From: a virus
Direction: 5' to 3' (one strand)
Length of the DNA: 64,000 bases
IMG/VR virus record: IMGVR_UViG_3300031772_000007
Coordinates: 29,826-93,825 of that record
Shown here: positions 9,487-47,321 of the stretch, piece after piece
Layout: each line of letters opens with the position of its first letter
Position numbering within the stretch: position 1 is the first letter of the stretch
Translations under genes and position numbers: made by a program
Notes under the pieces: generated by a model
The model's input: the letters and a program-made list of their open reading frames with translations, nothing else
Told to the model about the DNA's origin: nothing
Databases searched by the model: none

Positions 9487-9846
9487 TCAGAAGCTCCCTG
9501 TGAGCCGTCGGGCCGCTTCCCGGGCTCGCATCACCTGCTCGACGTGCGCCAGCACGTCCCGGAAGCGCTTGAAGCACACGCCCACCCCGAGCGTGAGGGT
9601 GTTCCCCGGTGGCGAGCGGTCGTAGAAGACGTATTCCGTCCGCGTTCGGAACCGATGCCCCACCCACTCGTGCCGGGAGATGCGGTAGAAGAAGATCGCC
9701 TCCCCCGATGTCTCCCACGGGTTCTTCACCAGAAGAAAGGCGTTTCCCTTCTCGCGGGTGAGCGCCATCCCGTTCGACAGCCGGACGTGGCAGCCCACTC
9801 GGAGCTTGGAGGGAGCGCAACGAATCTCTTGGGTGAGGTTGCCCAT
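9487..9846 (-). CDS. Small orphan, RLxG-tag family (EAARRLTG)
   Basis: C-terminal motif in register with paralogs. Confidence 0.7.
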   Translation of the reverse strand: MGNLTQEIRCAPSKLRVGCHVRLSNGMALTREKGNAFLLVKNPWETSGEAIFFYRISRHEWVGHRFRTRTEYVFYDRSPPGNTLTLGVGVCFKRFRDVLAHVEQVMRAREAARRLTGSF

Positions 9847-10286
9847 CAGTAATACCCCACGGACTCAGGCTTCCCGCCCAGCCGCGTTACCGCATCCCAC
9901 CGGGTGAACAGCGCGTTAGCTTGGTCCAGACACGCCTCCGTGCTCCCCCGATAGAGCACCTTCCTCACTCGGCGCTTCCGAACCCTGTACCAGTGCGACG
10001 AGAGCCACCCGTCATGCAGCTCCGCTTCGTGGTAGTGGTAGTGCCACCTCGGGCGAACCCAGAGATCAAGCCTGTATCCCTCTGCCAAGACGACCCAAGT
10101 GTTCCTGATGTGGTTCGGCTCCACGGTGAGCCCGAGCTGCGTCCCCACAAAGCGCGTCGCCCCGCCCAACGCGCAGATTTCGAGAAAGCGCCTGCGCGCC
10201 GTGCTCGCTCCCTGCTCCTTGAGCAAGTCCTGCCGCGCCCGCTCGCGCATCACCTGCCACTTCCTGTGCCCCTGCCAGTCGCTCAC
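9846..10286 (-). CDS. Small orphan, RLxG-tag family (DAVTRLGG)
   Basis: GTG start coupled to upstream stop; motif. Confidence 0.65.
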   Translation of the reverse strand: MSDWQGHRKWQVMRERARQDLLKEQGASTARRRFLEICALGGATRFVGTQLGLTVEPNHIRNTWVVLAEGYRLDLWVRPRWHYHYHEAELHDGWLSSHWYRVRKRRVRKVLYRGSTEACLDQANALFTRWDAVTRLGGKPESVGYY

Positions 10287-10636
10287 ACCACGAACCTTGC
10301 CCCGAGGCGCTTCCGCTGTCCCGTCAGCCGTGCAACCGTCTCCGCAGCCTGAAGGCACTGCCTTCCCACCGCGAACGCTTCCTTCACCGTCAGGCAGGAC
10401 TGCTCCCACCTGACGTGGACGCTTGTGGCTGTCTTCTCGAACACCCGGACAAACCACAGGTGCGAAAGCAATGGCTCCAGCATCTTCTGCACAACCACGT
10501 GATGACGGTCGGTGGTGAGCCCCCGCCACCAAAGCACGTAGAACTCCTTGCAGTACGAAACCGTAACCTCCCCCCAGTAGCACTGGCGGTCGGGAATGCC
10601 CCGCCCGTGGACCGGATCCAGCGGAACTCGCTGCAT
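10283..10636 (-). CDS. Small orphan, RLxG-tag family (ETVARLTG)
   Basis: TGATG coupling; motif. Confidence 0.65.
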   Translation of the reverse strand: MQRVPLDPVHGRGIPDRQCYWGEVTVSYCKEFYVLWWRGLTTDRHHVVVQKMLEPLLSHLWFVRVFEKTATSVHVRWEQSCLTVKEAFAVGRQCLQAAETVARLTGQRKRLGARFVV

Positions 10637-10731
10637 CACGCCCCCAACCGAAGTGCCGCGTCCTCGATTGCCAGCCACACGAGCGCCACCGCCGCCCAGG
10701 CTGCCCAGAACGCTGCTTCGAGGTGGCTCAC
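10636..10731 (-). CDS. 31-aa membrane micro-protein MSHLEAAFWAAWAAVALVWLAIEDAALRLGA
   Basis: Read directly; translationally coupled at both ends; TM helix plus motif. Confidence 0.6.
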   Translation of the reverse strand: MSHLEAAFWAAWAAVALVWLAIEDAALRLGA

Positions 10732-10844
10732 GTTCCCCCCGGGGCTCCCACCTTCACGTCGTAGTCCTTCCTGTAGAAGTCAACCCACTTGACCCCGTTG
10801 GGGACGTACACTCCTCGTGCTCGCATGATGTCGTGCAGGCGCAT
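10728..10844 (-). CDS. 38-aa hypothetical peptide (MRLHDIMRARGV...)
   Basis: GGGGAGGAG RBS; fills the gap after terL. Confidence 0.5.
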   Translation of the reverse strand: MRLHDIMRARGVYVPNGVKWVDFYRKDYDVKVGAPGGT

Positions 10845-10892
10845 GTCTCTCTCCTCCCCAGAACCTTGCCCGCCGCGCCGCCGGTTGTCCCG

Positions 10893-12368
10893 CTACCGGC
10901 GCACCACGTCCAAGTGGGTCTGCACCGCCTTGAGCGCGCCGAGGCGCACGCCCTCCCGCGCGAACCAGCTCGCCATGAGGCGGTCCCCGGTGTGCGCCCG
11001 CGGGTCATAGAACAGCATCTCGTTCACCCACTCGTAGAGCTGCGGGTGGAGGCTGCCGTCCGTGTTGGGGATGATCCACTTCCGCCCCGCCATCTCCGCC
11101 GCGATGGACTCAATGCCGAATTCAGGGTGCGCCTTGTTCCTGCCCGTCGTGAACGCCCTGATCGGCACCGCGAAGTCCCGCCGTGCGAACTGGATGATGA
11201 AGTCCTGCGCCGCGTTGTTCTCCACGATGCAGATGGAGAAGTAGCGCCGATGGTGGTCGATGATCTTCAGGATGATTTCCGGCCCAGCCCAACGTCCCGC
11301 CTCGACGTTCAACACCTCGCGGTCGCCGTTCGGGTGCGCCGCGATGGTGAACAGGCAGGTGAGGTCCGCGCCGTCCTTCTGTTGCACCGCCAGGTCCACC
11401 CCGGTGTACGTCTTGATGCCGTTCGGTAGCGCCTGGAGCCCGTGGCAGAGCCGCTTCCCATTCCCGCGCTCCAAGCACCAGCCCACCCACTCCTTGCGGA
11501 AGCGCGCTTCCTCATCGCTTCGGGCGACGCAGAGCATCGTGCGCGCGAACTCCAACGGCCCCCGCTCCTCCTTCACCCGCTGGATGCGCTCCATCGGCCA
11601 CCGCTCGGGCCAACGCGGCTGCCCGTCGTCCCCCAGCACCGGGTAGCGCATCGCCACCCACCCTGGGAGCTTCGCCAGCCGGTGGAGGGCGTCATCTGGG
11701 TGGAAGGCGGTCCCAATCACCAGCACCCGCGCCTTCGCCGTGAGACGGGAGAAGAGGGACGCCTGAATCCACTGGAAGCAGTCCTCCCGCATCTTGGCGG
11801 AGCGGGTGTTCTCCGTGTCGAGGAGGTCGTCCACGATGAGGATGTCGATGCGGCTTCCCAGCACGTTGCCGTGGACGCCGAGGGTCTGCACGCTCGGGTC
11901 CTTGCTCTGGTAGGGGCGCGCAATCGTGATGGCACGGCTGGTCCACTGCTCCTTGCCAGGACGAAGCTCGGGGAAGACGGCGTGCAGCTCCGGGCTCGCC
12001 TCGATGTACCGCTTGATGGTGCGGAGGATCTTGTCCGCCTGCCCCGCAGTGTTACTGACAACGGCCACGCGGAGCGTCGGGTCCTGCCCAAGAAGCCAGA
12101 GCGTCCGGGCAATCGCCACCTGCCACGTCTTGCCCGACTCGACCGAACTCCAGATGATAAGCCGGTCGTGCAGCTCCGCCAGCTCGTGCCAGGCGACGTG
12201 GCAGGAGGCTTGGTCCAGCGGGAGCCCCGTCTTCTCGTCCCGCATGACCGCGGTGGAGAAGGCGTCGATGTCAATGCGCGCCGCTTCGACCAGCTCCCGG
12301 TTCAGGAAGGCGTCCGCCTCGGGGTCGAACTCCAGCTCGTCGGGGATGGCGGTCACGGTCGGAGGCAT
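10893..12368 (-). CDS. terL: Terminase large subunit
   Basis: Walker A VESGKT, Walker B ILIVDD, coupling IGT, nuclease GVDLA...D...HTGDRLMA; start uncertain. Confidence 0.92.
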   Translation of the reverse strand: MPPTVTAIPDELEFDPEADAFLNRELVEAARIDIDAFSTAVMRDEKTGLPLDQASCHVAWHELAELHDRLIIWSSVESGKTWQVAIARTLWLLGQDPTLRVAVVSNTAGQADKILRTIKRYIEASPELHAVFPELRPGKEQWTSRAITIARPYQSKDPSVQTLGVHGNVLGSRIDILIVDDLLDTENTRSAKMREDCFQWIQASLFSRLTAKARVLVIGTAFHPDDALHRLAKLPGWVAMRYPVLGDDGQPRWPERWPMERIQRVKEERGPLEFARTMLCVARSDEEARFRKEWVGWCLERGNGKRLCHGLQALPNGIKTYTGVDLAVQQKDGADLTCLFTIAAHPNGDREVLNVEAGRWAGPEIILKIIDHHRRYFSICIVENNAAQDFIIQFARRDFAVPIRAFTTGRNKAHPEFGIESIAAEMAGRKWIIPNTDGSLHPQLYEWVNEMLFYDPRAHTGDRLMASWFAREGVRLGALKAVQTHLDVVRR

Positions 12369-12390
12369 TCCAGCAGGCCAGCCCTGCGCG

Positions 12391-13362
12391 TCAGCTCTTC
12401 CCAGCCCCCGTTTGAGGATGTTGTTCAGCCCCAGATGTTGGACCAGCACCCGCCCCTCCTTGCACCAGAATCAATCCCTTGGCCTTCGCCCGCTCCAGCG
12501 CCCGCGCAACCGCTTTCAGCTTGATTTCCCGCTCCTCGATGCTGGAGTCCATGCTCTGCACCCCGATGACCTCGGTGGGCTGCCCCACCCGGAGCCGTTC
12601 CCCTTGGAGAGCCAGGATGATCGTCCGCTCCCCCATCTCCGCCAGGTGCATCATGTCCCTCGCCGTCTTGATGGCTTCCCGCGGAGACAGCTTGGACAGG
12701 TCCCCGAGCGCGGTGTGGAGCTGAGCAGCGATGGTCTGCGCGTCCTTCAGGAGCAGCGCCACGATGGCAGCGGCGGACAGCGCCGCCTTCCGCCCGAACT
12801 TCGCCGCGTTCGCCTCATCCGCCAGCGTCTCCGCGGCGTCCACCTTCGCCTTCACCAGCAGGTCCGCCAGCCGCCGCTTGGCCTCAATCTCCGCCCCCTG
12901 GAGGGTCGCCTGCGCCGCCTTCTGCGCGTCATCCACCTTGGACCGTGCCAGCTCCTCCACCTTGGCGAGCTGCGCCTGCGCGGCATCCAGGGTCGCCATC
13001 GCCTTGGCTTCCGCCACCCGGGCGTTCTCCGCCGCCTTCACCAGCATGTCGGTGGCGTCGATGGCCTCCGTTCGCGCCTGCGCCAACGAGGTGGATAGAA
13101 CGGACTCCACCACTTCCTTCTGCTCCTCAGTGGTGATACCCGCTCGCGCCGCCCGGGCGAGGAGACTGTCCATCTGGAGCTGATCGCGGACGGGAAGTGC
13201 GCCTTGAACGGTCGGCCAGCCCCGCTCGTACAACCGTTTCGCCGTGAGTCGGTCCATCTTGACCCTATCGGCGACCAGTTGGTGATGCACCCCCAGCTCG
13301 CGGTACGCTGCAAGCACCGCGTTGTAGCGTTGGATGGTCCGCGCTCGGTTGCCCCTCGCCAT
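12391..13362 (-). CDS. Putative terminase small subunit (N-terminal HTH, long coiled coil)
   Basis: Immediately upstream of terL; HTH-like N-terminus. Confidence 0.6.
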   Translation of the reverse strand: MARGNRARTIQRYNAVLAAYRELGVHHQLVADRVKMDRLTAKRLYERGWPTVQGALPVRDQLQMDSLLARAARAGITTEEQKEVVESVLSTSLAQARTEAIDATDMLVKAAENARVAEAKAMATLDAAQAQLAKVEELARSKVDDAQKAAQATLQGAEIEAKRRLADLLVKAKVDAAETLADEANAAKFGRKAALSAAAIVALLLKDAQTIAAQLHTALGDLSKLSPREAIKTARDMMHLAEMGERTIILALQGERLRVGQPTEVIGVQSMDSSIEEREIKLKAVARALERAKAKGLILVQGGAGAGPTSGAEQHPQTGAGKS

Positions 13363-13366
13363 GCTC

Positions 13367-13471
13367 AATACCCCCTCGCAACCCCTTCCGAATAGCACGA
13401 GGAGGCTCGCGCGGTCCAGCCTCCCTCGGGCAATACCCGGCGTCCGGTGCTCCCCGTGACCTAATACCCGG
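13367..13471 (-). repeat. GGGTATT direct repeats (3 copies, two as CCGGGTATT) upstream of terS
   Basis: aataccc at about 13367, 13432 and 13463. Confidence 0.5.
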
Positions 13472-13485: not shown

Positions 13486-13821
13486 TTAATCCTCCGTGTT
13501 CCCGCGAAGACGCCCCGCCGCTTCTACTGCGCGCAGGTACACTTCCACGCCTTCCGCTGCTTCTCGAAGGTTCCGGTAGGGCGGGAGGGGGGATTCACCC
13601 TGGTTGAAGACCTCCAACCCTGACTGAACGAGCCACCAGCGTCGGACCCTCCTCTCGTTCCTCCCGGGAGGGTAATACTCCGCGTCCACCTGCGCCTTCC
13701 GGTAACGGGTGCCACTGCCCCAAGAACCCGGTTCCCCCTGGACACACACTGTAACGACCCACATGCCCCTGCCGCGCACGGTTAGGCTCAGCCCGGGGCG
13801 GATTCGTTGCCAGCACCTCAT
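13486..13821 (-). CDS. Small orphan, RLxG-tag family (EAAGRLRG)
   Basis: Tandem paralog of 13821-14153. Confidence 0.7.
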   Translation of the reverse strand: MRCWQRIRPGLSLTVRGRGMWVVTVCVQGEPGSWGSGTRYRKAQVDAEYYPPGRNERRVRRWWLVQSGLEVFNQGESPLPPYRNLREAAEGVEVYLRAVEAAGRLRGNTED

Positions 13822-14153
13822 CAGTCTTCCGTGTCCCCCTGGAGCATCCGTGCTGCCGCTCGGGCTCTCAGGTGCTCCTCTCCCTTCGCTGCCGCTACCT
13901 CCACCGTGCTAAACACCCCGAAGGGGAGATCCTGCCGATGGGTTCCTCGAAAGGCTCCGTTCGAGACGTACTCCATCAACCGCCACCCGTGGACCTTCTT
14001 GGTCGCCGTCACCTCGGGGACGATGTAGACCGCCTCGTGCCGAACGAAGCCTGTCTCCTCCATGCTCCCTGCGGTGCAGACCGTGAGGAACCAGAAACCG
14101 TTGGCCTGCCGGGTGAGGTTCACCCCGGGACGGATGCCCTCCCACTTACGCAT
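13821..14153 (-). CDS. Small orphan, RLxG-tag family (AAARMLQG)
   Basis: Tandem paralog of 13486-13821. Confidence 0.7.
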   Translation of the reverse strand: MRKWEGIRPGVNLTRQANGFWFLTVCTAGSMEETGFVRHEAVYIVPEVTATKKVHGWRLMEYVSNGAFRGTHRQDLPFGVFSTVEVAAAKGEEHLRARAAARMLQGDTED

Positions 14154-14469
14154 CCCCGCCCCCGAGCCGCCGGACGGCTTCCCTCACCCTCAACAGCTTC
14201 TTCGCGCCAGCCACGGCTTGCCGAAGGTAATGGTAGCGCGGTCGCGGGTCCACGAGCACCCGCAACCTCCAATCCAAGATGTCACCCCGCTCCCGTAGCT
14301 CATACACCTCGTAAACACGCCAGAACCTTAGTTCTTTGCGGAGAGTGCAGCTCAACCCGCCGCACCGGACTATCCACTCCCGGGGCTCGTCCTCGTGCCC
14401 CGTCTTGGCCGGATGAGAAGCGACAAAGAAGCCCTCTCCTTGGTCCCTGGTGACACCGCGGGCCATCAC
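14146..14469 (-). CDS. Small orphan, RLxG-tag family (EAVRRLGG)
   Basis: C-terminal motif. Confidence 0.7.
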   Translation of the reverse strand: MMARGVTRDQGEGFFVASHPAKTGHEDEPREWIVRCGGLSCTLRKELRFWRVYEVYELRERGDILDWRLRVLVDPRPRYHYLRQAVAGAKKLLRVREAVRRLGGGDA

Positions 14470-14765
14470 CCTACCCCTTTCAGCCGGTCCACCGCATCCA
14501 TCGCTCTCAGGGCAGCCTCCGCCGCCTGGAAGGCTTCCCGGACCGTGCCCGTGGCGATCCGCCGGATACCTGGCGGGAAGACGGCAATCCAGGTCCCACC
14601 CAGCGTCCGGTACACCTCGGCGTCCCGCGTGACGTAGGGCTCGAAGTCCGTATGTCTTTGTAGACCCACCCCTGTACCCAAGGACAGCAGGTAGTCGGGT
14701 GCGCCAACCTCGCTGGAAGGCGCGTTGTCGATGACCAGCCCGGTCTTGGTGACGACGCGCCTCAT
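14466..14765 (-). CDS. Small orphan, RLxG-tag family (DAVDRLKG)
   Basis: ATGA coupling; motif. Confidence 0.7.
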   Translation of the reverse strand: MRRVVTKTGLVIDNAPSSEVGAPDYLLSLGTGVGLQRHTDFEPYVTRDAEVYRTLGGTWIAVFPPGIRRIATGTVREAFQAAEAALRAMDAVDRLKGVG

Positions 14766-15124
14766 CGCCGCCGCTCCCCCGCCGTCAGCCGGTAGATGGC
14801 GTCCGTTCGCTCCGCCCACCGCAGCACCCCCTCCGGGTGCAAGAACTTCATGCTCCGAACCCGAAAGGCTCCCCAGCGCAGGTTCCGGCGGTCCTCGATG
14901 ATGGCGATCCGCCCCATCGCCGCTATCACCACCCGGAAGACGTAGTCCGGTCGCGTTCCGACGGACTCCGGGGTGTCCCCTCCGAACCGGATACCCAACG
15001 CCTCCACCCGCCATCTCCCGCTTTGCTCTACGAGCTGGTCGAACAGGGAATGGTAGACCTCCTGCATCGCCGACACGGGCATCACCTTCTCCCACCGAAG
15101 CCCGCGTTGCGCTTCCAGCCTCAC
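14762..15124 (-). CDS. Small orphan, RLxG-tag family (DAIYRLTA)
   Basis: GTGA coupling; motif variant. Confidence 0.65.
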   Translation of the reverse strand: MRLEAQRGLRWEKVMPVSAMQEVYHSLFDQLVEQSGRWRVEALGIRFGGDTPESVGTRPDYVFRVVIAAMGRIAIIEDRRNLRWGAFRVRSMKFLHPEGVLRWAERTDAIYRLTAGERRR

Positions 15125-15393
15125 ACTTTCCAACCCGCCTTCCTGATGTCGTCCCAACTGTAAACCGCGACCGATTCGTGCCCGTCCGGCTCGTGTCCAC
15201 CCACGCTGAGGAACCAGTTGCCGGTGAGCCGATGCACTGCGTCAACCAGCGAGGCGTACTCGGCGTCGTGATCTGCCGCCGTATGCGGGCTGTCGAACCG
15301 CCGCACCCGCCCGTGGTGTACCTGCTCGTCGAGCCATCCCCGGGGGAGCTTGTGCTTCCGCCAGAGCTGCCCGTAGGTCAGCCATTCGCCCAA
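15121..15393 (-). CDS. Xis/wHTH-like protein with tag (DAVHRLTG)
   Basis: WLTYGQLWRKHKLPRGWLDEQVHHGRVR; paralog of 18621-19154; TTG start inferred. Confidence 0.55.
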   Translation of the reverse strand: MGEWLTYGQLWRKHKLPRGWLDEQVHHGRVRRFDSPHTAADHDAEYASLVDAVHRLTGNWFLSVGGHEPDGHESVAVYSWDDIRKAGWKV

Positions 15394-15743
15394 GGGTCTG
15401 CCCTCCCTCCCAACCGCCGCTGCGCGTCCCAAATCCTGAAGGCTCGCACCGACCGCCGCTGTGCTTCCTCGAAGGTCGGGAACCAGTGCTGCACGCCCGA
15501 CGGTCCATCCACCCGCCACCGCACCTCCGCGAAGGTCGGCGGGAAGATGCTCATCTCGACCGGGTGGTAGAAGGCAATCTTCTCCGGGTTGCCGGGGTCC
15601 AGGTAGTCCCCTCCGACCGGAATGCTCAACCGGACGATGAAGTACGCCTGCCCCGACTTCCCCTTGTCGTCGAGTGGCATCACCCTCTGAAGGTCGATGC
15701 CTCCCCCCAGCTTCCGCTCCCACACGACGACCGGGACAGTCAT
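15378..15743 (-). CDS. Small orphan, RLxG-tag family (DAQRRLGG)
   Basis: C-terminal motif in register. Confidence 0.7.
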   Translation of the reverse strand: MTVPVVVWERKLGGGIDLQRVMPLDDKGKSGQAYFIVRLSIPVGGDYLDPGNPEKIAFYHPVEMSIFPPTFAEVRWRVDGPSGVQHWFPTFEEAQRRSVRAFRIWDAQRRLGGRADPWANG

Positions 15744-15967
15744 CAATGCCCCCCGGAGCGCCGAAGGTCCGCCCAAGCGGGCCAGACGTGGACCGTGCGC
15801 CCCTTTCCGGGGATGCCCGCCTCCCCCAGCTCCGCTCGACAGACGGCGCACTGCACCGCCGGTCCACACCGGCAGGTCTTGCTCTCCTCGTGCGCCGTGT
15901 CGAGCCCTTCCCGGTGGAGCACCACCAACCCATTCCGATGCCCACAGGTGTTCTTCGGCTGCGCCAT
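15743..15967 (-). CDS. Small Cys-rich hypothetical protein
   Basis: CGH, CRC and CAVC motifs. Confidence 0.5.
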   Translation of the reverse strand: MAQPKNTCGHRNGLVVLHREGLDTAHEESKTCRCGPAVQCAVCRAELGEAGIPGKGRTVHVWPAWADLRRSGGH

Positions 15968-15968
15968 C

Positions 15969-16259
15969 CTAAGCCCCCAACCTTTCCGCCGCTTCCTCTG
16001 CGCGGACGTGCTGCCGGACCAACCGAAAAACCGCGAGCGGGCTCGGGCAGTAGACGTGCGGGCGCACATCGACGTGCCGCCCGTCCCGGAACCCCGTCAG
16101 CAGCACGTCGTAGCCCGCCAAGTGCCGGGTGACGATGGCGCGAATCTTCCAGCTCCCGCGGAGCGCGAGCCAGCACACCCCGTACTTCTGCGGCATCACC
16201 ACGAGCCCGGCGACCTCGCGGACCTTCCGATTCCGCAGCCTGTCCCAAATCAACCGCAC
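15969..16259 (-). CDS. Small orphan, RLxG-tag family (EAAERLGA)
   Basis: C-terminal motif in register. Confidence 0.65.
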   Translation of the reverse strand: MRLIWDRLRNRKVREVAGLVVMPQKYGVCWLALRGSWKIRAIVTRHLAGYDVLLTGFRDGRHVDVRPHVYCPSPLAVFRLVRQHVRAEEAAERLGA

Positions 16260-16507
16260 GCCCCGAGCCTCCTCACCGCGTCCCACAGGGTAAGAGCCCT
16301 CTCCGCCGCTGCCTGCGCTTCCTCCTCCTGCTCGTGCAAGGTCGTCGCCCGAAAGGGATGAAACCCGCTGTAGTGGCACACCCAATCTCCACCCGGCTCT
16401 CCCTTTGTCGCCCGCTCCTCGACCCAGGCATGAGGACGCTGTTCTATCGGAACGCCGTCGTAGGTCCGCAGTTCCACCAGAACCATCCGGCGTTGATTGG
16501 GCTCCAT
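16250..16507 (-). CDS. Small orphan, RLxG-tag family (DAVRRLGA)
   Basis: C-terminal motif; start may be the GTG at 16585. Confidence 0.65.
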   Translation of the reverse strand: MEPNQRRMVLVELRTYDGVPIEQRPHAWVEERATKGEPGGDWVCHYSGFHPFRATTLHEQEEEAQAAAERALTLWDAVRRLGACG

Positions 16508-16581
16508 GCCCACCCGGCTCTCACCTCGGCGAAAGAGCCCTTCCTCCCCCCGAGGAGCCGTCGTTCTTGTCCTGCGCGGCT

Positions 16582-16827
16582 TCACGCCTTCTGCCACCGT
16601 GCCTTCTTCAGCACGCCCTTCTTCCGCCGCGGAATCATGTTCATGTAGAGCATGTCCTTCTCGTCGAAGCAGCCGGAGTGGGCCACCATCGCCCCAAGGG
16701 CGACGGACAGCGCCTCCTCGTGTTGCTCCTGCTCGAACGTCTGCGCCTTCCGCGACACGCACTGCATCAGCTCCAGCTTGCGCCGGAGGTTGTCGAATGC
16801 CCCTCGATACGTCAGCTTGCTTCTCAT
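16582..16827 (-). CDS. Hypothetical protein
   Basis: ATGA coupling; GGAGG RBS. Confidence 0.55.
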   Translation of the reverse strand: MRSKLTYRGAFDNLRRKLELMQCVSRKAQTFEQEQHEEALSVALGAMVAHSGCFDEKDMLYMNMIPRRKKGVLKKARWQKA

Positions 16828-18323
16828 GGCCCCTCCAAGTCGAACGCCTCGAACGTCTCCTTCAGCTTGCCCTTCTTCAGCGGACGGTACTGCTCCACGC
16901 GGCAGAACGAGGACGGCCCTACCTTCCCCGCCACCGCGTCCACGTACATCGAGAAGGCTCCGTCCTCGACAGTGTAGAACCACTTCGGAACGTGCGCTGC
17001 CTTCAGCGCCGACTCGCTCTCCCGAGCCAGCGCGGTGTCGATGCCGATGCTACGCGCCCGCGGATAGCCGCCGTCCAGCCGGTCCCCGGCGTCGAGCGCC
17101 AACACCTGCTTCACCCACTCGTCGTAGGAGTACGGCTGGAACGTCTCCGCCCGCCCCTGCCGCTTGAAGCCCAACAGCTTCACCTGCACCTTGCACCGCT
17201 CCGCTTCGGTGAGGATGTCCCCCAGCACCTCCAACGGCGTCGAGCCCATGACGTACTGCGCCGTAAGCCGCCCCTCTAAAAGCCAATCCTGCCCCTTCTC
17301 GTGATAGCCCGCCGCATGGGAGAGAGCTGTGACCTCGTCCGGGCTCGCAACCGTGTACGCGCAGGAGGAGTAGTACGCCATCGCCACTTTCATGTCCCCC
17401 GAGCCGAGATAGTGGATGTCCCGAGTGGTGAAGTTGGCGACCATGCCGTGCTCCCGGCACTCCCTCCCGATGTCGATGAACTTCGGATGCGAGGTGGGCT
17501 CCCCGCCACCCACCGCGATCTCCAGCACGCCCACCCCCGCCAGCTCCTTGATGATGCCCTTGAGCTTCGGGAACGATGCCGTCTCGCCGGTCGGGGTGCT
17601 CCCCTGGTAGCAGTAGGCGCACCCGTTCATGCAGCGGTCGGTGACCTTCAGGTCCACCAGCTCCGGCACCGATGCTCGCCACACCTTCGGGTGGCAGCCC
17701 TCGTCGGCGAACGAGAGGCGCGTCCGTGCGCCCGTCTCCCGGTTGAACAGGACCCAGTAGCCGTACTTAGGGTCCTTCCGCGCCACGATGTTCACCCCCC
17801 GTTGGAAGTCGCTGCCGAAGTCCACCGGAACCCTCTCAACACCCCCCGCCTCAAGGGTTGGGTGCGTGTCCCCGTTGTCGTTCCCCCCGAGAACGGCCAC
17901 CCTGTCGCTCAACACGAAGTCTCGCAGGTCCCGCGCGAACTCCAGATTGGGCTCCTTCTGCGTGCCCACCTGCGCCGGTAGCTTGTCCATCAGGCTTTGG
18001 TGGTCCACGTAGCCCTCGGGCTCCGGCCCGTCCGCCTTCTGCTTCCACTCCAGCACGCCCGGCAGCAAGTCCTCGACGAACCGCCGCGCCATTTCCCTGT
18101 CCGGGTGGAACTGCACCCTGAACACCTCCCAGAACTGGAGCGCCACGTACTTCGCCTTCTCCTCGCGCGACGTGAGCGTGAACATCTCCCACCCAAACTC
18201 GGGGCTGCACCACGCCTCCTCGCGCGCTTCGCCGGGGCGCAGGAAGATGAGGGTGTGATCCGAGCTGCTGTTGTTCGCAAAGCCCAGCCTGACGTTATGA
18301 ATCCTCGCGGTCCTCAAGCCCAC
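16824..18323 (-). CDS. Radical SAM protein fused to an N-terminal GFxNNSSSxH domain
   Basis: CMNGCAYC and GGGEPT; N-terminal RLGFANNSSSDH. Confidence 0.85.
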   Translation of the reverse strand: MGLRTARIHNVRLGFANNSSSDHTLIFLRPGEAREEAWCSPEFGWEMFTLTSREEKAKYVALQFWEVFRVQFHPDREMARRFVEDLLPGVLEWKQKADGPEPEGYVDHQSLMDKLPAQVGTQKEPNLEFARDLRDFVLSDRVAVLGGNDNGDTHPTLEAGGVERVPVDFGSDFQRGVNIVARKDPKYGYWVLFNRETGARTRLSFADEGCHPKVWRASVPELVDLKVTDRCMNGCAYCYQGSTPTGETASFPKLKGIIKELAGVGVLEIAVGGGEPTSHPKFIDIGRECREHGMVANFTTRDIHYLGSGDMKVAMAYYSSCAYTVASPDEVTALSHAAGYHEKGQDWLLEGRLTAQYVMGSTPLEVLGDILTEAERCKVQVKLLGFKRQGRAETFQPYSYDEWVKQVLALDAGDRLDGGYPRARSIGIDTALARESESALKAAHVPKWFYTVEDGAFSMYVDAVAGKVGPSSFCRVEQYRPLKKGKLKETFEAFDLEGP

Positions 18324-20372: not shown

Positions 20373-20388
20373 CTGCCCCGTCTCCGGG

Positions 20389-20607: not shown

Positions 20608-20632
20608 CTGGAAACCTTGCCCGGACGCAGGC

Positions 20633-39412: not shown

Positions 39413-39675
39413 TTCTTGTCCCTCACGCAAATTTCCAGGTGCAACGTCTCCGGCATGGGATCGCCCGACACGTACTTGCTCGACACCTCCCGAAGAATTC
39501 CCCGGAATGCTGTGTGCCCCCCGAAGTAGGTCCCGCTCGAAAGAATGACTATCGCGGCATTCTCAAGCGCACGGTGCCCCTGCACCCCCGTCAACCGGAG
39601 CGCCGCTTCGACGCCCAAAGGCACTTCCTCGTCGGGCGCGACCGCCATGCCCCAGATGAGATCCCGGACACGCAT
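39409..39675 (-). CDS. Hypothetical protein with tag (EAALRLTG)
   Basis: TGATG coupling; motif. Confidence 0.55.
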   Translation of the reverse strand: MRVRDLIWGMAVAPDEEVPLGVEAALRLTGVQGHRALENAAIVILSSGTYFGGHTAFRGILREVSSKYVSGDPMPETLHLEICVRDKK

Positions 39676-41234
39676 CAGAACGGCGCTTCCGGTAGATCGT
39701 CCGTCGGCTTCGCCGGTTGTTCTTGCAACACCTGCGAGAACGCCTCGCGCGCCGCATCCTGAGAGTCCGCTCCCAGGCGCTCCGCCGTCTCCGCGATCTT
39801 CCCCGCGGCTTCCGCCGCCGCCTTCACATTCGGGTCGTTCGACAACGACGAGACGAGCCGCAGGTGACTCGCCTTCCCCTCCCGCCGAATCAGCGGAGCC
39901 CGGCTCACCGGAGCCACCATCCCGCAAGCGAAGTTGACCGGCACCGGCCCGGAGGACTTCCGCCCCGGTCCGTAGCGATTCTTCGCCGTGAAGTAGTCCA
40001 TCTCCCCCGCCTCTTCGTCGAAGTTGAGGGTGATGAGCTGGTCTACGATGCGCCCCTTCTGCGAGCTATCCGCGAGGTGTTGGATGTCCAGCCGCTTCGC
40101 CCCGCGATCCTCCCGCCCCCGGCTTTGGCTCGCCGTGATGCCCTGGAGCTTCAGACCCCCGAGGCGCGAGACGGCGTCGCAAAAGATGCGGAGCTTTTCG
40201 TAGACGATCCGCATCTCCTCGTACATCCCCTTCTCGTTGATCTTCCCGCTCGCGGTGAGCTTGTCGGCGTAGTCCACCACCAGGATGTCCACCCCCTTCC
40301 CGGTTCGCGCCTCGATGTTCTTTACCCACTCCTCGATGATCTCGACGGTGGTGACGTGCGGCGTGAAGTCCTGCACCACAGGCGGCTTCCACTCCACCTG
40401 CGCCAGCCTCGCGTGAATCTCCGCCCAGGAGTTGCCCTCCAGCACCTCGTTGATGGGCACCCCGGTCGCGTTGGCGACGATTCGAGCTATGACCTGCTCC
40501 GACGGCAGCTCCAGCGTGGCGTAGACTGCCTGGAGCCCCCGGGATGCCGCCTGCCCGACGATGTGGCTCATCGTCATCGACTTCGCGCCGCCCGCTCCGG
40601 CCATGAAGCACGTCAGCGTCCCCCGCGGCACGCCCCCCTCCAGCGCGTCGTCGAGCGCGTCGATGTAGAACGGCTGCCGCGTGATGCCCCGAAGCCGCGC
40701 CATCGCCGCTTCGATGTTGTCCGGCGTCGCGATCACGCCGATGCCCGCCTCCCCCCGACCCAGGTTCTCCTCCCGGCGCATCAGGTCGCGGACGTTGCCC
40801 CACTCCTCGGAGGAGGAGTGCTCATCCACCGCCGCCTGCGCGATGGCGTGCCGAAGCCGAACCCGGAGGACCCGGATGGCCTCCTGCTCGATGTCCTCCA
40901 GCCGCGGGGGCTCCTTGCCGTCGTAAATGTCGAACAGCCCGGCGACGGCCCGCACATCCTCGTCGGTCAGCTTGCCCTTCTCCCGCCGGAACGCGGTGTG
41001 CTGGATGACTGCCTGCGGAGACTGCGGACCGACCCCGCGCTCGCGGAAGATCGCCTGCGCCGCCTCCATGGCAAGACGGCATTCCGGTTGGAGAAGAAGG
41101 TCTGGCCGAAGCTCGTGTCCCACCCGAGCCATGAACCGCGGAGTCGTACAGGCCAGGTAGACCGCCGCACGCTCGAAACTCTCCTCGAAGTTGTACGGTT
41201 GTTCCTGCCTGCCGCCCTTCTTCGCGCCAGCCAT
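39675..41234 (-). CDS. DnaB-like replicative helicase
   Basis: AGAGGAKS (variant Walker A), TLEL, VVDYAD, TASQ, AKNRYG. Confidence 0.88.
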   Translation of the reverse strand: MAGAKKGGRQEQPYNFEESFERAAVYLACTTPRFMARVGHELRPDLLLQPECRLAMEAAQAIFRERGVGPQSPQAVIQHTAFRREKGKLTDEDVRAVAGLFDIYDGKEPPRLEDIEQEAIRVLRVRLRHAIAQAAVDEHSSSEEWGNVRDLMRREENLGRGEAGIGVIATPDNIEAAMARLRGITRQPFYIDALDDALEGGVPRGTLTCFMAGAGGAKSMTMSHIVGQAASRGLQAVYATLELPSEQVIARIVANATGVPINEVLEGNSWAEIHARLAQVEWKPPVVQDFTPHVTTVEIIEEWVKNIEARTGKGVDILVVDYADKLTASGKINEKGMYEEMRIVYEKLRIFCDAVSRLGGLKLQGITASQSRGREDRGAKRLDIQHLADSSQKGRIVDQLITLNFDEEAGEMDYFTAKNRYGPGRKSSGPVPVNFACGMVAPVSRAPLIRREGKASHLRLVSSLSNDPNVKAAAEAAGKIAETAERLGADSQDAAREAFSQVLQEQPAKPTDDLPEAPF

Positions 41235-42890: not shown

Positions 42891-44405
42891 TTATGCCTGA
42901 TCGCCTGCTGAAAGCAAAGCCATTTGTGTGCCCGCGCCGCCGCCTCCCTCTGAAGAAATCACCAGCGGAACCACCGTCACCGGGTACTTTTCCCGTTGGT
43001 AGGCGTGCCGCCGCCGCTTCGCGTGCCGCCGCAGCCAGGCGTTGCCGTCGTCGGCCACGTCCCACACCTCGAAGGTGCTCTTGCCCGCCGCTGTTCGCAT
43101 CCCGCGTCCGATGCGCTGGAGCGCCGCAATGAGGGACTTCCCGCCAGAGGCGATCACCACGGACTGAAGCTCCGGGATGTCCACCCCCTCTTGGAAGATG
43201 ACCGAGGTGACGAGCACTTCGATGTCGGCCCTCACCAGCCGCTTCACCGCCGCCTGCCGGGTGCGGAGGCTCGCGTCCCCCCAGACGAACTCGCTCTTGA
43301 TGCCCCGCTTCGTCAGCGCCCGCTGGAACGCCTTGCCGTGCGCGATCTCCTTCACGAACACCAGGCACGGCTTCACCGCCTTCGCCGTGGCTGCGAGCAG
43401 CGCCCGGTTCCGCGGCAGCGACCGGACGACCCCCTCGTTGTAGACCTTCTGCCAGGGCCACCGCTTCAGGAGCCCGTCCTTGTCCACCTCGACGAAGTCC
43501 TGCCGCACCGGGACCATCCTGATGATGGGCAGCGCCAGCCGCCCCTCATCGATGAGCGTCTTGCTCTGGATGTCGTAGATGATGGGTCCAAGCGCCGCGA
43601 CCGCGTAGACGCTCCGCTGGTCCTCCCGGTCCAGGGGGGTGCCGCTGATGCCGATGCGCCAGTAGGCGTTCACCAGCAGCATCGCCACTTTCCAGAAGCT
43701 GTCCGCGGGGAGGACGTGGCACTCGTCGATGATGACCCCCTGGAACCCGGCGAGGAAGGCCGAGAGCCGCGCCCGCGCGCCCGGGTCCTTGTTCCGCGCC
43801 GCGGTAGCGAGGGTCTGGAACGTGGCGACCGTGAACCGCTCCCGCGGCTTCCACCGGCCTTCTCCCACCCGCCCGGCTTCCTCGTCGGGGCACCGCAACT
43901 CGTATCGCTGCGCCGCCTGCTCCATCAGGGTCTTGCGGTGGACGAGGAACAGCCACCGGCAGGGGATCTGCTTCACCAGCCCGATGGCGATCTCCGTCTT
44001 GCCACCGCCGGTTGGCACCCGGATGATGCCCCGCGCCTTCGTGTACGCCGCGACCACCGCCGCCTGTTGGTAGTCCCGAAGCCAGCTCGACCCCGTGAGT
44101 CGAGCAACCGCCTCCTCCACCTTCAGGTCTACGGGCAGAGGTGGCGCTCCCGGAGGCGTGCGCGCGTCGATCAGCTCCACCTTCAGCCCGGCGTCCGTCG
44201 CCCGCTTCAGCACCGTCGGCAGGAATCCCGAGGGGAAGTGCGATTCGAGGAGGTCGAAGAACCGGACCTTCTCCACTTCCCCGGAGGAGAACAGCGTCTT
44301 CTTGTTCGCGTAGGTCAGCCCCGCGTCCTTGGAGCGCAACCACTCAACCTCGGCGTCCGTCGCCCGCTGCACCTTCGTGTAGAGATTCCCTTGCGTGAGC
44401 CACAT
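42891..44405 (-). CDS. SF2 DExH helicase (UvsW-like)
   Basis: LRDYQ, PTGGGKT, DECH, SGT, QRIGRGMR. Confidence 0.93.
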   Translation of the reverse strand: MWLTQGNLYTKVQRATDAEVEWLRSKDAGLTYANKKTLFSSGEVEKVRFFDLLESHFPSGFLPTVLKRATDAGLKVELIDARTPPGAPPLPVDLKVEEAVARLTGSSWLRDYQQAAVVAAYTKARGIIRVPTGGGKTEIAIGLVKQIPCRWLFLVHRKTLMEQAAQRYELRCPDEEAGRVGEGRWKPRERFTVATFQTLATAARNKDPGARARLSAFLAGFQGVIIDECHVLPADSFWKVAMLLVNAYWRIGISGTPLDREDQRSVYAVAALGPIIYDIQSKTLIDEGRLALPIIRMVPVRQDFVEVDKDGLLKRWPWQKVYNEGVVRSLPRNRALLAATAKAVKPCLVFVKEIAHGKAFQRALTKRGIKSEFVWGDASLRTRQAAVKRLVRADIEVLVTSVIFQEGVDIPELQSVVIASGGKSLIAALQRIGRGMRTAAGKSTFEVWDVADDGNAWLRRHAKRRRHAYQREKYPVTVVPLVISSEGGGGAGTQMALLSAGDQA

Positions 44406-44408: not shown

Positions 44409-44900
44409 CTACCCCCCTCCCTTCATCAGCGACCGCCCGCGATTCAGCATCTCGTCGTAGCTCTCCCCCGGCAGCCGGGTGATGCCGAACACCGCCGCTA
44501 GAATCTTCTCCCACGCGGGGTCGTAGGTGCCTGCCAGCCGCGCCGCTGCCTCCGCGACTTCTGACATCCTGGGGGCACCCCGAAGGATGCCTGCCGCCAC
44601 CCGGGTTTCCAGCTCGGCGAAGTCGATGTTGCTCACTATCGACTCAAACACCTGTCGGGGGTCACTTGCCACCGAGCTTCCCCCCCCCCCCGCCTTGATC
44701 GCCTCGTTGAGCACCCGCGCCATCGCCTCACCGACCTTCTGCTGTGCCTGGAGGGACGAGGAGATCCTGCCGCTCGTCATCTTGAGAAACCAAGCGCTCT
44801 CCTTGGAGGTGAGCCCGTGCGTATCGACGCCCTGGAGCCGCTGGACGGCTTCATCTATCAGCTTGCGTCGGTGCCACCGCTTGCTTCGCTTGGAGCGCAT
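44409..44900 (-). CDS. Hypothetical protein with two tags (EAVQRLQG, EAAARLAG) and a G12 tract
   Basis: Motifs; homopolymer at 44680-44691. Confidence 0.6.
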   Translation of the reverse strand: MRSKRSKRWHRRKLIDEAVQRLQGVDTHGLTSKESAWFLKMTSGRISSSLQAQQKVGEAMARVLNEAIKAGGGGSSVASDPRQVFESIVSNIDFAELETRVAAGILRGAPRMSEVAEAAARLAGTYDPAWEKILAAVFGITRLPGESYDEMLNRGRSLMKGGG

Positions 44901-45066
44901 CAAACGGACCCTCCGTGTCGTAGAAGACCTCGATTTTCGGCGCGGGAACGACTCGCGTGAACTCCCACGTCCCAAGGTCCGGCTCCCGTGGCGGGTTCAG
45001 CCGCCGAACCGCCTCCCCCACCTCCCGGTCCCTCTTCCTGCGCGCCTGCTGTCGGCGACTGCTCAC
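44851..45066 (-). CDS. Small protein with tag variant (EAVRRLNP)
   Basis: GTGA coupling. Confidence 0.45.
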   Translation of the reverse strand: MSSRRQQARRKRDREVGEAVRRLNPPREPDLGTWEFTRVVPAPKIEVFYDTEGPFDALQAKQAVAPTQADR

Positions 45067-45362
45067 GATTTCTTCTCCCCGTAGAGGAGCTTCGGAAAGA
45101 GCGCGGTGTGGAACGCTCGGTTCATCAGATTCTTCTGCACCAGCGTCCTGGCCTCGTCGCTCAGATCCCAGATGCTCCCGCCCTTCAACCGCCGCGCCGC
45201 GTCGTTGACCATCCAGTCCTTGCACCGCCGACACGTCACCTTCGCCGGGTTCTGCGTGATCTGGATGCCCTTCGCCTTCGCCCCGGGCGAGCAGACGATG
45301 TACCGGCAGGGCTCCCCGGGGTAACTGGCAGTGTCGGCCCGAAGGTGAACGATGCGCGGCAT
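45063..45362 (-). CDS. Small Zn-binding protein with tag (DAARRLKG)
   Basis: VTCRRC followed by motif. Confidence 0.6.
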   Translation of the reverse strand: MPRIVHLRADTASYPGEPCRYIVCSPGAKAKGIQITQNPAKVTCRRCKDWMVNDAARRLKGGSIWDLSDEARTLVQKNLMNRAFHTALFPKLLYGEKKS

Positions 45363-45610
45363 CACACCAGCCCGGCGAGCTTTGCCGCCTCTGGCGACGC
45401 CTTCTTGAAGTACGCAATCACGCTCGCCCACTCCACCCAGCGCCCCTTGCTCAAGCGGACTTCGTGGATGAGCTTCGCATCCGCCCAGTTGTAGAGGCAC
45501 TGCGTCGTGTAGCCCAGCCGTTCCGCTGCCTCCGTCACCGGCAGGTAACCCCGCGATCTGAGCTGCGCCTTAGCGCCTGACTCCGTCACTTCCTCTTGTT
45601 CCTTCTTCAT
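45362..45610 (-). CDS. Xis/MerR-like HTH DNA-binding protein
   Basis: YLPVTEAAERLGYTTQCLYNW. Confidence 0.75.
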   Translation of the reverse strand: MKKEQEEVTESGAKAQLRSRGYLPVTEAAERLGYTTQCLYNWADAKLIHEVRLSKGRWVEWASVIAYFKKASPEAAKLAGLV

Positions 45611-46257
45611 GGCTCCTCCGCCCCCCCGCCCAACAGCCTCAACAGCCCGTCCGAAAGCGGGTTGCCCTTCCCCGCCGCCCGCTTCAACCCCTTCTTCGCC
45701 CGCTGGTACTCCTCCCGGCTCGTGAACTCGATCTCCAACACGTAGGGTTTGGTGTCCCCGCTGTCCTCAACGTCGTAGTCCGCCGGGGGTGCCTCCATGT
45801 CCTTCGGGAGCGCCGCATCCACGCTCTGACTGACGCTGGCGAGCAGGTCCGTGACCTCCCCCACATTGAACCCGGTGATGGTCAAATCCTCCACCTGCCA
45901 GCCCTGCCCGACCAAGTCCTTCAGTGCTCGGCCCACGCTCGTCAGGTCCAGCTCTCCGCGGAGCCGGTTCATCCCGATTCGGATGGCGATGGCGTGCGCC
46001 TCCTCCACGTCGGCGACGATGACCGCGGGTACCTCGACCATCCCCACCTCGCGCGCCGCCTTCACCCGATGGTGCCCGTCCACGATGCGGTACTCCCCCG
46101 GGGTGCCGAGCGGGTACGCCAGCACCGGCTGGAGGAAGCCCTCTTTGCGGATCGCCTCGACCAGCAATCCGTACCGTTCGGGCTCCATGACGTTCGGGTT
46201 CTCCGGTGCCTCCTTTAAGGCGTCGATGGGCACGTTGGCGATGGTGACTTTCCTCAC
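45607..46257 (-). CDS. ParB/Srx-domain protein
   Basis: NPN, GFLQPVL, YRIVDGHHRV. Confidence 0.85.
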   Translation of the reverse strand: MRKVTIANVPIDALKEAPENPNVMEPERYGLLVEAIRKEGFLQPVLAYPLGTPGEYRIVDGHHRVKAAREVGMVEVPAVIVADVEEAHAIAIRIGMNRLRGELDLTSVGRALKDLVGQGWQVEDLTITGFNVGEVTDLLASVSQSVDAALPKDMEAPPADYDVEDSGDTKPYVLEIEFTSREEYQRAKKGLKRAAGKGNPLSDGLLRLLGGGAEEP

Positions 46258-46805
46258 GTCCGTATCTCCTCGTAGAGCGAGCGGAGCACCGGGCTCCGCT
46301 TCGCGTTGCGCCGCAGGTTCTTCGCCGCGTGGTACACCTGCTCCACCGGCACGCCCTCTATCCGCGCGACCTCCGCGGGCTGGAGCCCATCAAGGCTGAC
46401 TCGAATGCCGAGCTTCTTCCGGCTCGTGTCGCAGGCGCGGAAGGCGGCTCGCGCCCGGGTGCGGATCTCCGCGTCTGCCAGAACATCCACCGGCAAACCC
46501 TCCAACACCTCGCCCCCGGTCATCTCCAACGGGACCGCGAAGGTGAGCTGTCCCCCGTGGTACGGCTGTGGGGTTGAGACGGGGTTCTGCGTTCGCCAAG
46601 TGTACCGCCGGAGGGCGTACAGCGCCGCGCAGTAGGCGTAGGTCCAGAAGCTGGTCCCGCGCTTCCGTTGGTACGTCGCCCTGGCTCGGAGGACGGCCAG
46701 CGCCGCCTCCTGTACCAGCTCCGCCGGTTCCGACCACCGGAGGGCTCGGACGTAGTACGACGCCGCCGCCTGAGCTATCTGTTGTATTTCTTCTAGCCCT
46801 TGCAT
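46254..46805 (-). CDS. Phage sigma70-family sigma factor
   Basis: Region 2 ELVQEAALAVL...GTSFWTYA; region 4 GLQPAEVARIEGVPVEQVY. Confidence 0.8.
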   Translation of the reverse strand: MQGLEEIQQIAQAAASYYVRALRWSEPAELVQEAALAVLRARATYQRKRGTSFWTYAYCAALYALRRYTWRTQNPVSTPQPYHGGQLTFAVPLEMTGGEVLEGLPVDVLADAEIRTRARAAFRACDTSRKKLGIRVSLDGLQPAEVARIEGVPVEQVYHAAKNLRRNAKRSPVLRSLYEEIRT

Positions 46806-46815
46806 TCTGTGGACT

Positions 46816-46844
46816 CCTATACTCTGTTGGCTTCGTTGTGTCTA
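46816..46844 (-). promoter_or_regulatory. Host sigma70-like promoter for the sigma gene
   Basis: TAGACA-17 bp-TATAGG. Confidence 0.5.
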
Positions 46845-47321
46845 CGGGGCTCCCAACCGCTTCGCGGCGAGCAGCGCCTTCCGTGCTGCCGTGTCGTGCT
46901 TCCCCCGCCGCAGCAGGTTCGAGTACGGCCCTATCTCAGCGACCCAGTCCGGCACCCGTGTCTCCTGGAGCACCCCGTCCTTGCTGTAGCGCGTTCGGAT
47001 GGCGACGCACGCCTCCGCGCACGCCTGCGTGAACACGTCCGTCTGATACCCCGCGCCCAAGCGAATCCATCCTCGCGCCTCCCACCGCCGGAAGCGGATC
47101 GCCCGCCGCTGGTACGCCGTGAGCCGCCTGCCGGTCCCTTCTTCCTTCTTTGGCTCCGCCTTGGCGATGGACGGGTACACCTCGTCCACTGTCCGCTTCA
47201 GCCGGGAGACTCCCAGGAGCACCGCCCGCCGCGCGTTGCGGCGAGAGATGCGACCCTGTTCGGGATTGAGACGGCGGACGGCTCGGGTGATGCCCTTCAA
47301 CGCCTGCTCCAACGGTGTCAT
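46842..47321 (-). CDS. Basic hypothetical protein (tag variants RAVRRLNP, AAKRLGA)
   Basis: CTCCCAAGGAG RBS element. Confidence 0.6.
   Translation of the reverse strand: MTPLEQALKGITRAVRRLNPEQGRISRRNARRAVLLGVSRLKRTVDEVYPSIAKAEPKKEEGTGRRLTAYQRRAIRFRRWEARGWIRLGAGYQTDVFTQACAEACVAIRTRYSKDGVLQETRVPDWVAEIGPYSNLLRRGKHDTAARKALLAAKRLGAP

Follow-up and report, generated by a model that had tools for sequence, protein, structure and literature searches.

The window analysed here is a 64,000-nucleotide stretch of DNA comprising bases 29826–93825 of the 93,825-bp IMG/VR virus record IMGVR_UViG_3300031772_000007, which is rated complete by CheckV. It has a G+C content of 66% and almost all of its genes lie on the minus strand. 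On both sides of the gene for the large terminase subunit (TerL), small open reading frames (ORFs) are arranged head to tail in three arrays (A–D, 9487–10731; E–M, 13486–16762; N–P, 18295–19875; Table 1). About 15 copies of an eight-residue peptide, hereafter the tag, lie within 20 residues of the stop codon in small ORFs of 75–160 residues. Further copies are carried by replication proteins and other genes away from the arrays. An initial annotation of the window had singled out the tag as a possible protein-level address label.

The window and the whole record were scanned in six frames with the strict pattern [DE]A[AVT]xRLxG and, counted separately, with a looser pattern. The strict pattern occurs 16 times in the record and the loose pattern 24 times, always on the minus (coding) strand and within positions 9496–45203 of the window; none of the three plus frames contains a copy. 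When residues were shuffled within each of the 133 called proteins, 0.046 strict copies were found on average (maximum of two), compared with 14 observed in those calls. A more demanding, empirical background was taken from 889 kb of tag-poor relatives with a G+C content of at least 62%, scanned in all frames. It holds 11 strict and 24 loose copies, so that 1.16 strict and 2.5 loose copies are expected per genome of this size; against this rate, the observed numbers have P ≃ 2e-13 (strict) and 7e-16 (loose). A scoring matrix trained only on the tags of other genomes gave at least 10 bits at 32 minus-frame sites and at no plus-frame site. The enrichment is thus confirmed as real and robust. The initial annotation had counted 15 strict copies, to which the scan adds DAVSRLGG in the DnaB-like helicase. 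Its copies were genuine, although the positions it gave were mostly the low ends of ORFs (EAARRLTG, for example, lies at 9496–9519 and not at 9487), and the near-matches that it listed were also located, including EAARQLGF at 20398 and SAARRLGW in the ORF at 38050–38223 (others in Table 1). The 32 matrix sites agree with its figure of close to 30 carriers. Most copies were said to lie at or near C-termini, and 15 of the 24 loose copies do fall within 20 residues of the stop.

The conservation is at the protein level, as had been proposed from the varied codons. At shared residues, the fraction of identical codons between tag regions is 0.399, compared with 0.413 expected from the codon usage of the genome, and nucleotide identity between any two tag sites (60 nt) does not exceed 63%. 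Since synonymous sites show no extra identity, the signal resides in the protein. The alternative is that a nucleic acid signal, such as an element for ribosome binding or coupling, a recombination joint or a small mobile element inserted at gene ends, encodes the peptide incidentally. Many copies do shortly precede overlapping stop/start junctions, the GGN GGN codons are reminiscent of a Shine–Dalgarno sequence and the Glu at the first tag position is encoded by the rare codon GAA in eight of 12 cases, compared with 15–21% genome-wide (GAG otherwise). The GAA excess arises in part because GAA generally becomes more frequent before codons that start with G. Nine copies, however, are distant from gene ends, the other frames and the opposite strand have no copies and the peptide is retained among relatives that span 56–70% G+C. 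The codon comparison by itself already largely refutes this reading, to which we give almost no credence. Variable repeats of diversity-generating retroelements and mobile mini-elements are ruled out by the absence of identity at the DNA level, and a ribosome-arrest peptide by the distance to the stop, which ranges from 0 to 63 residues. A Shine–Dalgarno constraint would affect the Gly codons only slightly, if at all.

The array ORFs have the third-position G+C typical of coding sequence, neighbours overlap by a few bases at their stop/start junctions and several have orthologs. An independent gene caller (represented by a protein library) gave the same lengths for K, N and H and a length one residue shorter for G. 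When 53 array proteins from eight phage sequences were aligned on the motif, similarity was found to extend beyond the eight residues to about 16 residues upstream, namely a Ser/Thr cap at position −16, Leu/Phe at −15, Ala at three positions (−12, −8 and −2) and Leu at two (−11 and −4). The cap, Ala and Leu positions are independent of the search pattern. The tag ends a C-terminal amphipathic helix of about 24 residues, which terminates at the tag Gly and has its hydrophobic residues on one face; 0–17 variable residues follow. The N-terminal bodies are unrelated in sequence, with 52 of them (from the eight phage sequences) falling into 46 BLAST clusters, in line with the description of the carriers as otherwise dissimilar.

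AlphaFold models of two proteins with unrelated bodies, B and E, share a common plan in which a β-sheet is followed by the tag helix. The model of B contains a helix, seven strands and a C-terminal helix (residues 116–135), with a predicted local distance difference test score (pLDDT) of 70. The model of E contains six strands and a helix (residues 85–105), with a pLDDT of 78 and a predicted template-modelling score (pTM) of 0.74. Because the helix follows the β-sheet body in these models, the array tag is, as modelled, the end of a structural helix that defines the family. Most simply, the arrays represent a rapidly diverging paralog family in which E and F are a recent duplicate pair. The smallest carriers are the predicted 31-residue ORF D, which consists of a hydrophobic helix and the tag, and a 44-residue ORF in a relative (G008).

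Searches of curated families and structures with the array proteins returned no convincing match. Ten array proteins tested against Pfam and PHROGs gave no match above threshold, Foldseek comparison of the B and E models with the PDB and BFVD gave nothing at E ≤ 0.001 and the best E-value of a PDB sequence-profile search was 0.096. The best Z score of a structure-alignment search was 7.4, inside the range that the tool reports for models without a real match. The nearest folds for the E model are generic sheet-plus-helix binding modules, namely FrpD (Z = 7.4), capping protein (Z = 6.5) and the T7 inhibitor Gp1.2 (PDB entry 7u65_G; Z = 4.5). Gp1.2 also combines a sheet with a C-terminal helix and aligns over 79 residues with a score in the noise range; it differs from E in having no sequence similarity, and proteins of its type have no known shared motif. 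A protein atlas search gave no feature-based match and only weak structural neighbours. A word-based homolog search with B returned only B itself, and a search for related loci with the B family returned only the genome G006; the same search for the HTH_36 protein found no relatives.

The copies outside the arrays share only the core of 8–12 residues, without the long helix, and are placed in linkers, loops and tails. Two are linked to insertions in conserved enzymes. In the superfamily 2 (SF2) helicase a 12-residue insertion, LKVEEAVARLTG (44091–44126), has the tag as its core; the insertion lies immediately before the Q motif and is absent from nine of nine orthologs. In the DnaB-like helicase DAVSRLGG arises together with a six-residue insertion found in this genome alone. 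At the position equivalent to EAAARLAG of protein W, the relative G001 has DAARRLAG. Zn-ribbon or CxxC motifs are frequent neighbours of the tag, which directly follows them in the primase and protein X and precedes them in protein O, in two proteins at 7773–8078 and 13245–13460 of locus L112 and in library protein P0131. The C-terminus DGLLRLLGG of a ParB-like protein (45607–46257) was set aside as a separate motif, [DS]xG[LV]Lx[LI][LI]G, that is conserved in all ParB-like orthologs.

Table 1. Tag-bearing and other features of the window. Positions are those of the window; tag positions follow the tag. aa, amino acids.
Feature	Position	Strand	Tag or near-tag	Remarks
Array protein A, 119 aa	9487–9846	−	EAARRLTG, 9496–9519	Tag 2 aa before stop
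Array protein B, 146 aa	9846–10286	−	DAVTRLGG, 9873–9896	Tagged orthologs in G006, L112 and P0132
Array protein C, 118 aa	10283–10639	−	ETVARLTG, 10319–10342 (near)	
Possible micro-ORF D, 31 aa	10636–10731	−	DAALRLGA, 10639–10662 (near)	Predicted; stop follows tag
TerL	10893–12449	−		Untagged here; tag arrays flank TerL in all tag-rich phages
Array protein E, 111 aa	13486–13821	−	EAAGRLRG, 13501–13524	
Array protein F, 110 aa	13821–14153	−	AAARMLQG, 13836–13859 (degenerate)	Paralog of E (30–33% identity)
Array protein G, 106–107 aa	14146–14469	−	EAVRRLGG, 14158–14181	Independent gene model P0134
Array protein H, 99 aa	14466–14765	−	DAVDRLKG, 14475–14498	Gene model P0133
Array protein I, 120 aa	14762–15124	−	DAIYRLTA, 14780–14803 (near)	
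Protein J, ~90 aa	15121–15393	−	DAVHRLTG, 15220–15243	Tag 32 aa before stop
Array protein K, 121 aa	15378–15743	−	DAQRRLGG, 15405–15428 (near)	Gene model P0124
Array protein L, ~96 aa	15969–16259	−	EAAERLGA, 15972–15995 (near)	Tag abuts stop
Array protein M	16250–16762	−	DAVRRLGA, 16259–16282 (near)	Start uncertain
Protein N, 109 aa	18295–18624	−	ESTYRLGG, 18322–18345 (near)	Gene model P0130; G006 ortholog has ESALRLGG
Protein O, 177 aa	18621–19154	−	DAAARLTG, 18813–18836	Zn-ribbon tail follows tag
Protein P, 163 aa	19384–19875	−	ESVDRLQG, 19420–19443 (near)	G001 ortholog has EATRRLQG
Protein Q, 75 aa	28172–28399	−	DATERLGG, 28226–28249	
Protein R, 113 aa	38220–38561	−	DAARRLRG, 38238–38261	Tag 5 aa before stop
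Primase (Toprim)	38558–39412	−	DAVDRLQG, 39185–39208	Tag in variable linker after Zn finger
Protein T, 88 aa	39409–39675	−	EAALRLTG, 39586–39609	Tag near N-terminus
DnaB-like helicase	39675–41234	−	DAVSRLGG, 40155–40178; ETAERLGA, 39768–39791 (near)	First in loop, second in C-terminal tail
SF2 helicase	42891–44405	−	EAVARLTG, 44091–44114	
Protein W	44409–44975	−	EAAARLAG, 44529–44552; EAVQRLQG, 44829–44852	Two tags
Protein X	45063–45500	−	DAARRLKG, 45180–45203	Tag right after CxxC motif
156-aa protein	46842–47312	−	LAAKRLGA-P, 46848–46871 (tag-like)	C-terminus; 15 bits on other-genome matrix
Peptide deformylase	4264–4845			Between portal and small unknown genes
Thymidine-hypermodification-type cluster	19878–26077			Dam methylase, radical SAM, two ParB-like, P-loop kinase, amino acid:DNA transferase, pyridoxal phosphate (PLP) enzyme; from Pfam
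gp32-like single-stranded DNA-binding protein (SSB)	32187–32972			C-terminus ...GGDFDY
Family-A DNA polymerase	33582–37148			N-terminal domain like uracil-DNA glycosylase (UDG); intein with HNH endonuclease (Intein_splicing 642–911, HNH_3 724–763)
Trio	47644–51211			DUF6744 protein, HExxH metallopeptidase fused to VWA domain, MoxR-type AAA+ ATPase
tRNA-Met (CAT)	55114–55185	−		Single tRNA; between putative lysis genes

Relatives were gathered through a TerL search and are labelled G (genomes), L (loci) or P (library proteins), with the present genome as G000; the search gave 1,072 TerL relatives, of which the closest are 70–72% identical. A search of related contigs, as the initial annotation had suggested, found the same tagged arrays next to TerL. 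Counted as loose copies, they hold 11 in G001, 11 in G006, 12 in G008 (mainly [DE]S[IV]xRLGG), 13 in 21.5 kb of L112 and nine in 11.6 kb of L114, and these five sequences span 56–67% G+C. G007 and L126 have a few copies, and background levels were found in about 50 other related loci and in the complete genomes G002, G009 and G010. The family was defined as proteins of 75–170 residues, encoded adjoining TerL, in which a Ser/Thr-capped amphipathic helix ends in [DE][AS][AVTI]xRLx[GA] within 20 residues of the stop; 54 ORFs in eight phage sequences fit this definition. Degenerate versions of the helix occur in small ORFs of G009, and also in L112 and L114; the G009 ORFs indicate that the family grades out with no sharp limit. 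When a profile of the helix was searched against 1.84 billion representative proteins, 13 matches were obtained at E ≤ 0.001. Ten of these are small proteins matched at the C-terminus, all from this clade or the queries themselves, and the other three are long, repetitive and matched over several stretches. Within the proteins searched, the arrays are confined to five or six related uncultured phages.

The absence of the tag from portal, head, tail and lysis genes, noted in the initial annotation, holds for this genome but not for its relatives. The portal protein of G006 carries DAATRLQG at the start of a variable C-terminal extension. In the TerL proteins of G007, G008, L158 and L160 the tag lies within an insertion in the linker that joins the ATPase to the nuclease domain, and SEAAERLGG occurs in the tail of the G001 RecA. 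Once present, the tag tends to be kept. It is retained in orthologs with bodies that are just 26–51% identical, and in seven ortholog pairs, drawn from tag-bearing ORFs only and to that extent a biased sample, the pattern is kept in seven of seven with an identity of 64% in the tag and 39% elsewhere.

The same six residues have thus been gained repeatedly, by small insertions in different conserved proteins, and this is the strongest argument for treating the core as a unit: repeated gains of this kind make chance or a shared fold hard to sustain and suggest, as read from the sequences, that the core is functional and portable. Our tentative preference, held at slightly less than even confidence, is that the tag is a portable docking epitope recognized in trans by one common partner. 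The motif would be the exposed end of a short amphipathic helix, built from an acidic residue, a pair of small residues, the invariant Arg-Leu and a capping Gly. Its reader might be a hub protein of the phage or the host, or a machine acting at the site of phage DNA replication and packaging. In the arrays, a constant tag end would be carried by fast-diverging small proteins with a β-sheet-plus-helix build, the variable bodies of which probably bind different targets. In enzymes of replication, recombination and packaging, the 8–12 residues would have been acquired separately, by insertion or local change, in flexible regions. The shared tag would then bring all carriers to one place or partner. 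Since tags occur on replication, recombination, packaging and DNA-binding-like small proteins and are missing from the head, tail and lysis genes of this genome, recruitment to phage DNA metabolism appears to fit better than capsid loading.

Several observations weigh against a docking epitope. The apparent invariance of Arg and Leu is partly an artefact, because the search pattern demanded them, and the ortholog comparison is biased as described above. In both AlphaFold models the tag helix directly follows the β-sheet body, and since one helix face is hydrophobic, the conservation of Ala, Ala/Val and Leu may be partly structural. The combination of a Gly cap with an Arg that has an acidic residue four positions before it stabilizes helices generically. 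In a co-occurrence test across 11 genomes, no gene of the present genome was shared by every tag-rich phage and missing from every tag-poor one, so that any reader would have to be encoded by a conserved phage gene or by the host, or be the tagged proteins themselves; the gene that was flagged (54560–55099) was dropped, as it probably encodes a lysis or membrane protein adjoining the endolysin. Of the address label first proposed, protein-level conservation, unrelated bodies, portable lineage-specific insertions and retention in diverged orthologs have held up. About half of the copies, however, are not free peptides but the last two turns of the 24-residue helix, and co-occurrence pointed to no single partner.

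In the main alternative, the tag has no common partner and is the best-conserved end of the C-terminal helix of a hyper-divergent paralog family, in which tandem duplication and rapid divergence would have removed every similarity but this helix. The copies in the helicase, primase, DnaB, portal and TerL would be unrelated short helices that converged on a Glu/Arg salt bridge and a Gly cap. The tandem arrays with their clear recent duplicate pair, the strands-then-helix plan of both models, the upstream similarity that the pattern did not demand (the cap and Ala/Leu at −12, −11, −8 and −4) and the merging of degenerate forms into ordinary helices in G009, L112 and L114 would all be expected. 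It leaves unexplained, however, why the same six defined residues appear in lineage-specific insertions of five different conserved enzymes, why the polar positions (the acidic residue and Arg) are the most conserved and why micro-ORFs consist of little beyond the tag, and it sits badly with the background of just about one strict copy per genome in the related high-G+C phage DNA. We judge this reading unlikely, though serious. A distinctly less likely one is that the Ala-rich amphipathic helices associate with each other or with the β-sheet bodies, giving homo-oligomers or hetero-oligomers in which small proteins are tethered to tagged enzymes. The small and hydrophobic residues do recur with a spacing of three to four (−12, −8, −2 and +1 for Ala; −11, −4 and +5 for Leu), a periodicity known from tight antiparallel helix pairs. 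The tag follows winged-helix-like segments, in which C-terminal dimerization helices are common, in J, O and a G001 protein, and the failure of co-occurrence to reveal a separate receptor gene would be accounted for. Internal copies of 8–12 residues, however, are too short for a stable coiled coil, and the modelled helix, coming after a β-sheet body, would be expected to pack on that body.

It is more improbable still that the tag is a site for an enzyme, either for timed proteolysis (as a degron or by cleavage after RLxG) or for Arg modification. Candidates would be the HExxH-peptidase/VWA protein together with the MoxR AAA+ ATPase, or a host protease. The tails after the Gly are short and variable, and the phage encodes an intact HExxH peptidase–VWA protein beside the MoxR ATPase; its VWA domain has a complete metal ion-dependent adhesion site (MIDAS; DTSGS...T...D) and a Gly/Gln-rich linker. 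The ligand of a VWA MIDAS site is typically a short motif that contributes an acidic residue. The trio of DUF6744, HExxH–VWA and MoxR genes is, however, conserved alike in tag-rich and tag-poor relatives, known C-terminal degrons need the extreme chain end while the tails here vary in length, and cleavage in the linkers of the helicase, DnaB and TerL would destroy essential enzymes. The tag is also not a C-terminal degron of the ClpX/ssrA type (for example LAA-COOH), since 0–17 residues follow the Gly and nine copies are internal.

The initial annotation knew of no description of the motif, and none emerged here: the tag matches no known family or motif in Pfam, PHROGs, PDB and BFVD searches, and a literature search on shared C-terminal motifs of small phage proteins found nothing relevant. 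The closest parallel is the capsid targeting sequence (CTS) of T4. In T-even phages, diverse internal proteins share only this short addressing peptide (PMC3012670). Both systems combine diverse small accessory proteins with one short conserved peptide, and in both the carrier genes lie in a hyper-variable locus beside head and packaging genes. The CTS differs in being N-terminal, removed by the prohead protease and responsible for loading into the scaffolding core, whereas the present tag is a C-terminal or internal helix end that is also found on proteins not expected in a capsid, namely helicases, primase, RecA and TerL. As 15 of the 24 loose copies are C-terminal and most others internal, the tag is not an N-terminal leader of the T4 type; protein T and one copy in W have it near the N-terminus, yet not as leaders.

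Another parallel is offered by the β-clamp motif QL[SD]LF, the PIP box and the clamp-binding tails of T4 gp43, gp33 and gp55, which are also short, lie at termini or linkers of unrelated proteins of DNA metabolism, are gained and lost by lineage and are read by one hub. The tag differs in its consensus and in forming a helix; it requires an acidic residue, an Arg and a Gly cap, and most of its carriers are small proteins of unknown function. It has no Gln or aromatic positions and so is not a bacterial clamp motif (QL[SD]LF or QxxLxxF); no clamp gene was found among the annotated genes of the window. The first helix and turn of a helix–turn–helix (HTH) motif (xxEAAxxLG[VI]S...) has similar letters, but the tag has one extra residue between Leu and Gly. 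The tag matrix gives 13 bits to a true HTH of the window, VTEAAERLGYTTQ at about 45509. An HTH domain does not account for the tag: most array chains end 0–8 residues after it, which leaves no recognition helix, and Pfam found no HTH in any of ten proteins. Double-glycine leaders and ubiquitin-like processing were dropped because fold and register are wrong, and RLxG is unlike the RLRGG ending of ubiquitin-like proteins in that it ends a 20-residue α-helix in both models and not a flexible tail after a strand. Overall, the motif matches nothing described, and an address label, backed by the insertions, is plausible when combined with a structural role for half of the copies.

Pfam also identified a sigma-like factor, SbcCD-like proteins, RecA and an endolysin among the products of the window (other genes are listed in Table 1). 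Of the hypermodification cluster, only the kinase and Dam have orthologs in G001. Inteins are also present in TerL of several relatives, as a 903-residue open frame in G001 and as Hint/LAGLIDADG Pfam matches in P0011, P0021, P0024 and P0027. The DnaB-like helicase has an acidic tail (...DDLPEAPF), the terminal Phe of which is retained in G001, G007 and G010; this tail and that of the gp32-like SSB resemble the polymerase-docking acidic tails of T7 gp4 and gp2.5. Assignment of a host through the peptide deformylase was abandoned, as the best cellular homologs are 46–47% identical and come from mixed phyla (Persicimonas, Rokubacteria and Acidobacteria metagenome-assembled genomes), and a phage collection contained no cultured relative (top TerL match 26% identical), which leaves the myxophage label of the initial annotation tentative. 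Just upstream of the window, at 28409–28777 and 28790–29032 of the genome (766–1134 of L002), two adjacent small proteins share the C-terminus GPKGGR[YF]YV..TGEKVY, which is a second portable C-terminal module of the same phage. It weakly matches the PBCV basic adaptor domain (E = 0.006), and one of the two proteins is 71% identical to its G006 ortholog.

If one partner reads the tag, it would be a compact, transferable phage address label, of which few are known, the T4 CTS being the classic case. A tag of 8–12 residues that functions in a loop would also be a useful tool. In its widest form, which we consider possible but on balance unlikely, the proposal is that an uncultured clade of phages of about 90–110 kb uses a dedicated addressing code, in which a helix end that can be added to any protein by a 12-residue insertion directs both hyper-variable small effectors and the enzymes of replication, recombination and packaging to one hub, for example a scaffold of the viral DNA factory or a remodelling machine. 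Variable bodies on a constant end resemble an arms-race repertoire, which makes the arrays a possible source of new anti-defence or host-takeover proteins. Were the docking epitope confirmed, it would give direct access to some two dozen functionally uncharacterized proteins per genome, reveal how the phage organizes its replication and packaging proteins in the cell and show that small in-frame insertions can create short linear motifs in phage enzymes.

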